DNA of 64,000 nt. It comes from Escherichia coli. Lineage in GTDB: Bacteria > Pseudomonadota > Gammaproteobacteria > Enterobacterales > Enterobacteriaceae. The translations under genes were made by a program, and so were the position numbers. A model generated the notes under the pieces. The model was given only the letters and a program-made list of their open reading frames with translations. It had not been told where the DNA came from and searched no databases. The stretch lies in NCBI RefSeq assembly GCF_003334335.1, contig NZ_QOWQ01000003.1, one strand, 5' to 3'. Positions 19,028 through 20,315 of this stretch are shown here, piece after piece. Every line of letters starts with the position of its first letter. Positions within the stretch are counted from its first letter, which is position 1.

Positions 19028-19060
19028 GGCGCAACCTTCACGGGTTGCGCCTGTATTTTT
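19028..19060. terminator. Hairpin + T-tract between convergent mdtK and ydhQ
   Basis: GGCGCAACC-TTCACG-GGTTGCGCC followed by TTTTT. Confidence 0.5.
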
Positions 19061-20315
19061 ACGCAGGCTGGAGCGTTGCGCCAATCCCGTCTTCGTCTGG
19101 CTGTAATTTCAGAGCGTTACACAGAGTTTGCCGACTGGCATCTGTTATCTCAACGTGTATATCCCCGGTAACTTCCCCTTTCACATTGATGAAGTCAGGT
19201 GAAATTTCTTTTGCACTGGTTTGCAGGCAAATCGCTCCCTCTCCGCGCAGGCGTTTCACTTTCAGTTGCACATGCGTTGCCGCATCAGTGATCAGCCACA
19301 GTTTTCCACCATTCAGATTGATGTTACCAACAATGAAAGTGACACCGTCACCTTTTACCGTACTGCCGTCTAGAATCAACACACCGCCCTGCTGTACAGT
19401 AATCGTTGATTGTTGCAGCTCTGCGCCATAACCAATAATCATTGAAGCGCCGTCCAGTAATGCAACACTCCCGGTCAGTTCAACCGGTGCGCGATCTTCC
19501 TCTACGACAAAATTTTCGTCCGCGCTGATGGGTGACAACAGGATCACTGTCCCACCTTGTATTACCGCGTTTTCCAGCGTACCGGCATGCACTTCAGCCC
19601 GACCACCCACATTCACGGACAGGTTTTGCGTCTTACCGGAACTGTAGAGCTGAAGGCCATCCGTCCCCAGACGATAAATGGATCCATTCTCAACAATAGT
19701 GTCAGAGTCTTCACCACCGAGATTATTCATGGTGCCACCAGCAAGCAACGTATCACTGGCTTTCCCGGCCAGCATAAAAACGCCGCCCTGATTAATCTCA
19801 CAATTGCTGGCTTCCCCACCTGGATACACCAACAATTCACCACCTTCATCTACCACGACCGCTGAGGTTGTCCCATTAACCAACAGGCCGCCCTCTTGAT
19901 CGAGAATGATTTTTTCCGCGCGATGTCCTTCCAGTACACGCAGGTTACCGCCATTTTCCAGCAACAAACCGCAGGCATAACCTTTATCAACGCTGAATTC
20001 ACCTTCGGGATGGCGGCCATTAACCGTAGCGAGCGTAGAGAGACTAATTGCGCCTCCCTCGGACTGAACAATATCTGTGGCAATGGCACCATCGCTGACC
20101 GATAGCGTGCCATTGTTACCGTACTGTGTGCATTTGGCGATCCCACCGGTTGCCACTTTCAACCAGCCAGCCCCCGTGACCACGGTATTTTCGGCTCTTC
20201 CGCCAGCTTCAACAATCAACTCGCCTTCAGTAAGTTGCGTCGCGCCAATGACCTCGCCGGTCTTAACAATTTGCACGTTCCCGTCGCTCATCAAGTTTTT
20301 CGCATCAGATCCCAT
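19059..20315 (-). CDS. ydhQ: Autotransporter-passenger-like beta-helical protein YdhQ
   Basis: ORF track 418 aa; Gly/Thr/Val-rich repeats typical of AIDA/pertactin passengers; no signal peptide or beta-barrel seen. Confidence 0.85.
   Translation of the reverse strand: MGSDAKNLMSDGNVQIVKTGEVIGATQLTEGELIVEAGGRAENTVVTGAGWLKVATGGIAKCTQYGNNGTLSVSDGAIATDIVQSEGGAISLSTLATVNGRHPEGEFSVDKGYACGLLLENGGNLRVLEGHRAEKIILDQEGGLLVNGTTSAVVVDEGGELLVYPGGEASNCEINQGGVFMLAGKASDTLLAGGTMNNLGGEDSDTIVENGSIYRLGTDGLQLYSSGKTQNLSVNVGGRAEVHAGTLENAVIQGGTVILLSPISADENFVVEEDRAPVELTGSVALLDGASMIIGYGAELQQSTITVQQGGVLILDGSTVKGDGVTFIVGNINLNGGKLWLITDAATHVQLKVKRLRGEGAICLQTSAKEISPDFINVKGEVTGDIHVEITDASRQTLCNALKLQPDEDGIGATLQPA

Follow-up and report, generated by a model that had tools for sequence, protein, structure and literature searches.

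We analysed a 64,000-nucleotide stretch of an Escherichia coli genome (RefSeq assembly GCF_003334335.1, contig NZ_QOWQ01000003.1; hereafter the window) and report here on ydhQ, a gene whose product carries autotransporter passenger repeats but has neither of the parts by which autotransporters are exported. RefSeq names the product 'AIDA repeat-containing protein'. The gene lies in an E. coli K-12-type segment with the order purR–punR–punC–cfa–ribE–mdtK–ydhQ–valV–valW–ydhR–ydhS–ydhT, and the genes annotated within 6 kb of it are mdtK, the tRNA-Val pair, ydhR, ydhS and ydhT. The mdtK gene is convergent with ydhQ and ends at position 19018. The features of the gene and its flanks are as follows.

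19059–20315, minus strand: ydhQ coding sequence, with an ATG start, 418 codons and a TAA stop (open reading frame list, NF007409 and RefSeq annotation).
19027–19052, both strands: bidirectional hairpin resembling an intrinsic terminator, between ydhQ and mdtK (terminator scan; 10–11 pairs, 7 of them GC).
20319–20321, minus strand: in-frame TAA, two codons 5′ of the ydhQ start.
20323–20327, minus strand: Shine–Dalgarno-like AAGGA, 7 nt 5′ of the ATG (read from the sequence).
20316–20622, minus strand: ydhQ 5′ leader and promoter region, common to the divergent valV–valW promoter.
20531–20572, plus strand: mapped position of an FlhDC site from genomic systematic evolution of ligands by exponential enrichment (gSELEX), 216–257 bp 5′ of the ydhQ start.

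The terminator-like hairpin follows the ydhQ stop codon after only 7 nt and, together with the end of mdtK just beyond it, leaves no space for a downstream barrel-coding sequence. On the other side of the gene, an alignment of six Escherichia ydhQ leaders has a mean column identity of 81%, with the last 70 nt highly conserved and the CAGCAAAGGAA block of the ribosome-binding region unchanged in all six. An Rfam scan of ydhQ and its leader returned no credible RNA element.

YdhQ is the type protein of NF007409/PRK09945, a family named 'hypothetical protein' or 'AIDA repeat-containing protein' with no functional name, and matches this NCBIfam equivalog over its full length (residues 1–418 to model positions 1–418; 938 bits against a cutoff of 830). 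The NCBIfam model of antigen 43 (Ag43) aligns its positions 249–456 to YdhQ residues 25–230 (E 2.7e-25), the AIDA-I model also matches and the strand-loop-strand repeat TIGR04415, the model for repeat proteins targeted by heptosyltransferases, is found in two stretches (43.1 bits against a cutoff of 30). Pfam AIDA (PF16168) gives three matches at E ≤ 0.001, the best of them at residues 99–159 (E 2.2e-22), with weaker matches extending the zone to residues 9–211. An earlier annotation of this DNA, made from its letters alone (the sequence-only reading), had described a 418-residue product with AIDA-I-like passenger repeats, and these matches bear it out. It had also described the protein as rich in Gly, Thr, Val and Asn. 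The composition (G 15.3%, L 10.5%, V 9.1%, A 8.1%, T 7.7%, N 5.5%) agrees for Gly, Val and Thr, but Asn is not notably enriched. YdhQ is strongly acidic, having 52 Asp and Glu against 25 Lys and Arg, for a net charge of about −27. Two regions of the protein can be delimited.

19683–20291, minus strand: AIDA-type strand-loop-strand repeat region, residues 9–211, the Ag43-like part of the β-helix (PF16168, TIGR04415, the Ag43 model and PDB matches).
19107–19331, minus strand: truncated pertactin-like (autochaperone) module, residues 329–403 (PF03212 positions 1–78 of 121, E 2.5e-5).

The protein terminates 15 residues past the PF03212 match, and positions 79–121 of that model, the last third or so, go unmatched in YdhQ; whatever normally comes after them is likewise missing here. 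Alignments to complete proteins place YdhQ in the interior of a longer architecture. Residues 26–379 are collinear with residues 252–604 of an Ag43-like relative, at 31% identity by BLASTP and 37% in the HMMER stretch. Residues 170–396 align to 369–586 of the 978-residue full autotransporter P0157, in which some 390 further residues, barrel included, follow. On these alignments YdhQ is equivalent to the passenger of an Ag43-type protein from its C-terminal half onwards, extending into the autochaperone region. The nearest representatives beyond the Escherichia cluster share at most 38% identity and are large repeat proteins or fragments, and a search of AFDB50 returned only YdhQ, fragments of YdhQ and ordinary autotransporters, revealing no other family of short relatives that lack both leader and barrel.

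An AlphaFold2 model of YdhQ, built on a 23-sequence alignment, is all-β, with a mean predicted local distance difference test (pLDDT) of 91.6 and a predicted template modelling score of 0.88; disorder is confined to residues 1–8. The model agrees with the public AlphaFold entry for YdhQ at a template modelling score of 0.97. Foldseek matches it with probability 1.0 to the PDB entries of Ag43 and TibA, and sequence searches of the PDB likewise find Ag43 chains from several strains and TibA. The fold is most likely a right-handed β-helix of roughly 13–14 predicted rungs, with β-hairpins; strands are modelled at residues 78–84, 89–93, 97–102 and 105–110, and the truncated autochaperone module is itself folded with pLDDT 80–97. 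PDB alignment shows one copy of the hairpin motif in YdhQ against two in an Ag43-like relative. Domain search and structure prediction, the checks put forward with the sequence-only reading, thus agree on a β-helical fold, and the objection that the fold might not be β-helical fails. No catalytic motif is recognisable in YdhQ. None of the anti-phage defence families of PADLOC-DB matches it at E ≤ 1, and a defence role was rejected on that ground.

A classical type Va autotransporter combines an N-terminal Sec signal peptide, a β-helical passenger and a C-terminal 12-stranded barrel, of which YdhQ has only the passenger. Its first 12 residues carry a net charge of −1, and the N-terminus contains no hydrophobic core: the best 10-residue hydropathy within the first 70 residues is 1.19, compared with 2.3–2.9 in four relatives with leaders. 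The in-frame TAA, two codons ahead of the start, makes a longer N-terminus impossible, and the SignalP 6.0 prediction reported for YdhQ is negative (PMC13101318). At the other end, neither the Pfam barrel model PF03797 (E ≤ 10) nor the NCBIfam model TIGR01414 (E ≤ 1) matches YdhQ, whereas the relatives P0157 (341 bits), P0042 and P0070, used as positive controls, all match TIGR01414; the predicted structure is likewise accounted for entirely by β-helix and hairpins, with no barrel. No translocator is found among the annotated neighbours within 6 kb on each side, and tblastn with Ag43-like and complete autotransporters as queries, ydhQ being masked, found nothing else in the window (all E > 0.07). 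The lack of a signal peptide, of a barrel and of an adjacent translocator, all three claimed by the sequence-only reading, is therefore upheld. Without a Sec leader and a β-barrel YdhQ cannot export itself, and the lack of both argues against surface exposure. It is not a type Va autotransporter by either part and should not be filed as one.

The literature has placed YdhQ differently. A 2026 study calls it a 'leaderless autotransporter', and there the addition of a foreign leader to a YdhQ fusion raises agarase and pFAST reporter activity over that seen with no 'anchor' (PMC13101318). This speaks for YdhQ as a true but atypical autotransporter or display anchor, which would reach the outer membrane from the periplasm or pair in trans with a barrel encoded elsewhere. 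We consider this very unlikely. Neither PF03797 nor TIGR01414 detects a barrel in YdhQ, though relatives score with the latter, the protein ends inside the autochaperone module in a structure predicted to hold only β-helix and hairpins, and the 64 kb window contains no barrel fragment; native YdhQ, having no leader, would never meet a periplasmic partner. The study does not mention the missing barrel, and its assays, agarase activity on plates and a membrane-permeant fluorogen, are no direct measure of surface exposure (PMC13101318).

The closest named family to YdhQ is Ag43 (Flu/Cah; PDB 4KH3, 7KO9, 7KOH and 7KOB), whose PDB chains match at E 1e-22 to 1e-25, and the homologous AIDA-type repeat passenger of the Ag43, AIDA-I and TibA group is present. 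Ag43, at about 1,040 residues, has in addition an extended signal peptide, 250 more N-terminal passenger residues and a second hairpin repeat, all absent from YdhQ; it further has a full autochaperone module, a linker and a barrel of 12 strands, none of which is seen in YdhQ. TibA and AIDA-I are exported, unlike YdhQ with its missing leader and barrel. A dedicated transferase whose gene lies next to theirs (TibC, Aah) adds heptose to them. In contrast to this arrangement, no gene of the TibC/Aah type flanks ydhQ, none being annotated within 6 kb on either side, and the idea that YdhQ is a heptosylation substrate was set aside for lack of such a gene nearby.

Despite its truncated architecture, ydhQ is maintained as a protein-coding gene. 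Across all pairs of five Escherichia lineages its ratio of non-synonymous to synonymous divergence (dN/dS, Nei–Gojobori) is 0.085–0.136, at dS of 0.45–1.1; mdtK, cfa and ribE give 0.01–0.04, and ydhR 0.06–0.17. The gene is clearly under purifying selection, though less constrained than housekeeping genes. Constraint is uneven along the protein, and one segment stands out.

19896–20075, minus strand: most constrained segment, residues 81–140, comprising the β-hairpins and the following rungs (sliding-window dN/dS 0.02–0.03, against about 0.1 overall).

The most relaxed stretch is residues 321–360 (dN/dS 0.32), consistent with the positively selected sites that have been reported in ydhQ (PMC9110714).

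When neutral substitutions alone were simulated, an open ydhQ frame survived in 2.7% of runs at d = 0.1 and in 0.1% at d = 0.2, and not one of 2,000 runs kept it at d ≥ 0.45. These values bear on the possibility that ydhQ is a non-functional autotransporter relic, persisting by chance or by hitch-hiking beside mdtK and the tRNA-Val genes. Such a relic would be in keeping with an internal fragment of a larger architecture, with the lack of an overt laboratory phenotype on deletion (PMC6962156) and with rare singleton alleles (P0003, P0007, P0008, P0009, P0012, P0013 and P0015) that carry in-frame deletions of 16–48 residues. The deletions fall at residues 98–145, 166–215 or 283–323, amount to some 1–2.5 rungs and are consistent with slippage between repeats. 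We nonetheless hold a relic to be highly improbable: dN/dS is near 0.1 in every pairwise comparison, the frame is intact in all species sampled and in 5,425 of 5,426 E. coli genomes, the simulated survival of the frame is about 0.001 at d = 0.2 and nil at d ≥ 0.45, conservation extends to the ribosome-binding site, and the protein has been detected by proteomics (PMC6561319). The sequence-only reading had left the choice between an 'orphaned' and a 'repurposed' β-helix protein. The former, taken as decay, is contradicted by the intact syntenic reading frame, by dN/dS and by the loss of frame in the simulation, and we infer that the latter is to be favoured.

The selected product could in principle be something that overlaps ydhQ, be it an RNA, an antisense reading frame or the distance that separates the mdtK terminator from the valV promoter; mechanical open reading frames do occur on the opposite strand, and the leader is common to the tRNA promoter region. 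This explanation is scarcely credible, since non-synonymous changes are depleted specifically in the frame of ydhQ, Rfam yields no credible match within the gene, and a spacer of about 150 bp from mdtK to the tRNA genes suffices in Salmonella and Enterobacter.

Ag43 is borne on prophages or islands and is variably present. By contrast ydhQ is core: its 1.7 kb locus is found in all 5,426 complete E. coli genomes at 97–100% identity, with at least 80% covered in 5,425. The single disrupted copy, in strain AR_0013 (L010 1675–4592), has an ISEcp1 transposase gene between the two halves of ydhQ. Orthologues of 418 residues in the same mdtK–ydhQ–tRNA–ydhR context occur in E. albertii, E. marmotae, Escherichia sp. 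E4742 and a ruysiae-type clade, and an additional orthologue of 419 residues, 71% identical to YdhQ, has the same leader region. Outgroup loci were reached through MdtK homologues. In Salmonella, Enterobacter and Pseudenterobacter the conserved purR...cfa–ribE–mdtK block leads directly into the tRNA-Val pair, and neither ydhQ nor a remnant of it was found at the mdtK/tRNA-Val site of these loci; the tblastn queries used on the window also found no remnant of a leader, an N-terminal passenger or a barrel in the three outgroup loci. Because these genera pass straight from mdtK to the tRNA-Val genes, ydhQ is an insertion of roughly 1.6 kb, specific to Escherichia, that lies 5′ of valV. An exact peptide-pattern scan of species-representative genomes returned a single Escherichia locus and could not map the phyletic range.

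We propose that ydhQ arose as an internal fragment of an Ag43/AIDA-I-type autotransporter gene, of the self-associating kind, which begins in the middle of the passenger and breaks off two-thirds into the autochaperone module. This fragment would have become fixed between mdtK and valV–valW in the Escherichia ancestor, equipped with its own ribosome-binding site, start codon and terminator, and would have been kept since as a working gene. Its product is most likely a soluble, acidic β-helix that remains cytoplasmic; leaderless reporter–YdhQ fusions are fluorescent, functional and cytoplasmic (PMC13101318). YdhQ would then act by binding, with the near-invariant hairpin region 81–140 as its candidate contact surface. 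We are highly confident of the architecture and of the selection on the gene; the proposal as a whole, from domesticated fragment to cytoplasmic β-helix binding through its hairpin region, we judge somewhat more probable than its negation.

High-throughput data point loosely at elongation factor Tu (EF-Tu) and RNA-associated complexes as possible partners: YdhQ copurified with EF-Tu (PMC2672614) and was among 17 unannotated proteins crosslinked to RNA (bioRxiv 10.1101/2023.07.03.547468). These two observations are the only hints of such a partner. A more specific version of the proposal, in which a type V secretion passenger has been taken into the cytoplasm to dock, as an acidic solenoid specific to Escherichia, through residues 81–140 on a component of the translation or RNA machinery, is one that we put forward tentatively and regard as doubtful. 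On regulation, the ydhQ mRNA is a predicted CsrA target (PMC5389547), and an in vitro FlhDC binding sequence has been obtained by gSELEX in the ydhQ–valV spacer (PMC9962212). The mapped FlhDC site overlaps the −35 hexamer (TTGCCA at 20568) of the predicted valV promoter.

Several points weigh against a cytoplasmic binding role. EF-Tu is a frequent contaminant of pull-downs, and the net charge of YdhQ makes it unlikely to be a direct RNA binder. Laboratories routinely treat deletion of ydhQ as neutral, for use as a control or as a site of integration (PMC6962156; bioRxiv 10.1101/2023.03.28.534373), so that any phenotype must be subtle or conditional. Fusion of YdhQ to a foreign leader is reported to give extracellular reporter activity (PMC13101318), and YdhQ appears in vesicle-proteome lists compiled at the level of clusters of orthologous groups, under COG3468 (PMC10458587). 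A role in early adhesion is cited second-hand, from earlier work (Roux 2005), in PMC9110714; such a role, along with positively selected sites, is more typical of a surface protein.

Part of this evidence would fit a YdhQ that leaves the cell non-classically, through flagellar type III export, in vesicles, by regulated lysis or with an unknown carrier, and on the outside either works as an adhesin, soluble or loosely bound, or modulates cell–cell aggregation. Its fold is that of self-associating adhesins, the relayed adhesion role and the positively selected sites (PMC9110714) are joined by the relaxed stretch at residues 321–360, and YdhQ is a listed member of the COG3468 vesicle set (PMC10458587). 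The in vitro FlhDC site (PMC9962212) would suit a flagellar connection, as would the disordered residues 1–8 of the model, disorder being usual in flagellar export signals. Non-classical export is, in our assessment, unlikely. The protein has no leader and its leaderless fusions remain cytoplasmic (PMC13101318); vesicle proteomes hold many cytoplasmic proteins; the adhesion claim is taken from a secondary citation (PMC9110714); and the FlhDC site, established in vitro only, overlaps the valV −35 hexamer and lies more than 200 bp from the ydhQ start. We therefore retain a cytoplasmic location as the favoured reading.

The existence of ydhQ, its homology and its missing leader were already published or held in databases, the last under the 'leaderless autotransporter' label of the 2026 paper. 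The present analysis adds the genus-wide purifying selection, the precise points of truncation and the insertion site relative to the outgroups. As an uncharacterized 'y-gene' of E. coli K-12, ydhQ has served as a disposable integration site and, recently, as an 'autotransporter' anchor for surface display. The evidence cautions against both uses: a core gene of the whole genus under purifying selection is probably not neutral in nature, and a protein with neither barrel nor leader falls outside the definition of an autotransporter. Should an intracellular role be found, YdhQ would be an example of a secreted adhesin fold recycled for a cytoplasmic task.

The same repeat recurs in metagenomic relatives of YdhQ. 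Among those of at least 300 residues (within P0032–P0174), 89 of 113 have neither a leader-like N-terminus nor a barrel match by a classifier that is crude and gives clear false negatives (for example, P0073); most are giant, at 1,000–6,000 residues. These leaderless, barrel-less relatives start directly with the repeat (MAYIISSG...), and few have the C-terminal aromatic residue that is typical for proteins of the outer membrane. Recurring C-terminal motifs are ...FEESGKGLLASL, ...WQNIATIS, ...LDITSL and ...TITKIA. Together these features suggest the same repeat in a non-type-V architecture.

Elsewhere in the window, ydhT (22935–23747, minus strand) encodes short Ser/Gly/Ala-rich tandem repeats of its own (ARIGSVGFNSHIGSSGERARVAVTGNSSRISSAGDSSRIANTG...), possibly forming another solenoid; its tblastn match to an autotransporter is at chance level. 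The junction of mdtK with the tRNA-Val pair is a variable hot spot (window 20623–20780; L011 8363–15362; L012 8375–15374; L013 8378–15377). On the 3′ side of the pair, Salmonella carries type III secretion system genes of the Salmonella pathogenicity island 2 type, Enterobacter has HSP20, GlgS and YdcA genes together with type VI secretion system genes, Pseudenterobacter has a ydhS-like gene and Escherichia has ydhR–ydhS–ydhT. Rfam RF02194 (HPnc0260, 'bacterial antisense RNA') matches window positions 20742–20904 on the minus strand, scoring 112 bits where the gathering score is 59; the match runs antisense to the valW–ydhR spacer and the 3′ part of valW.

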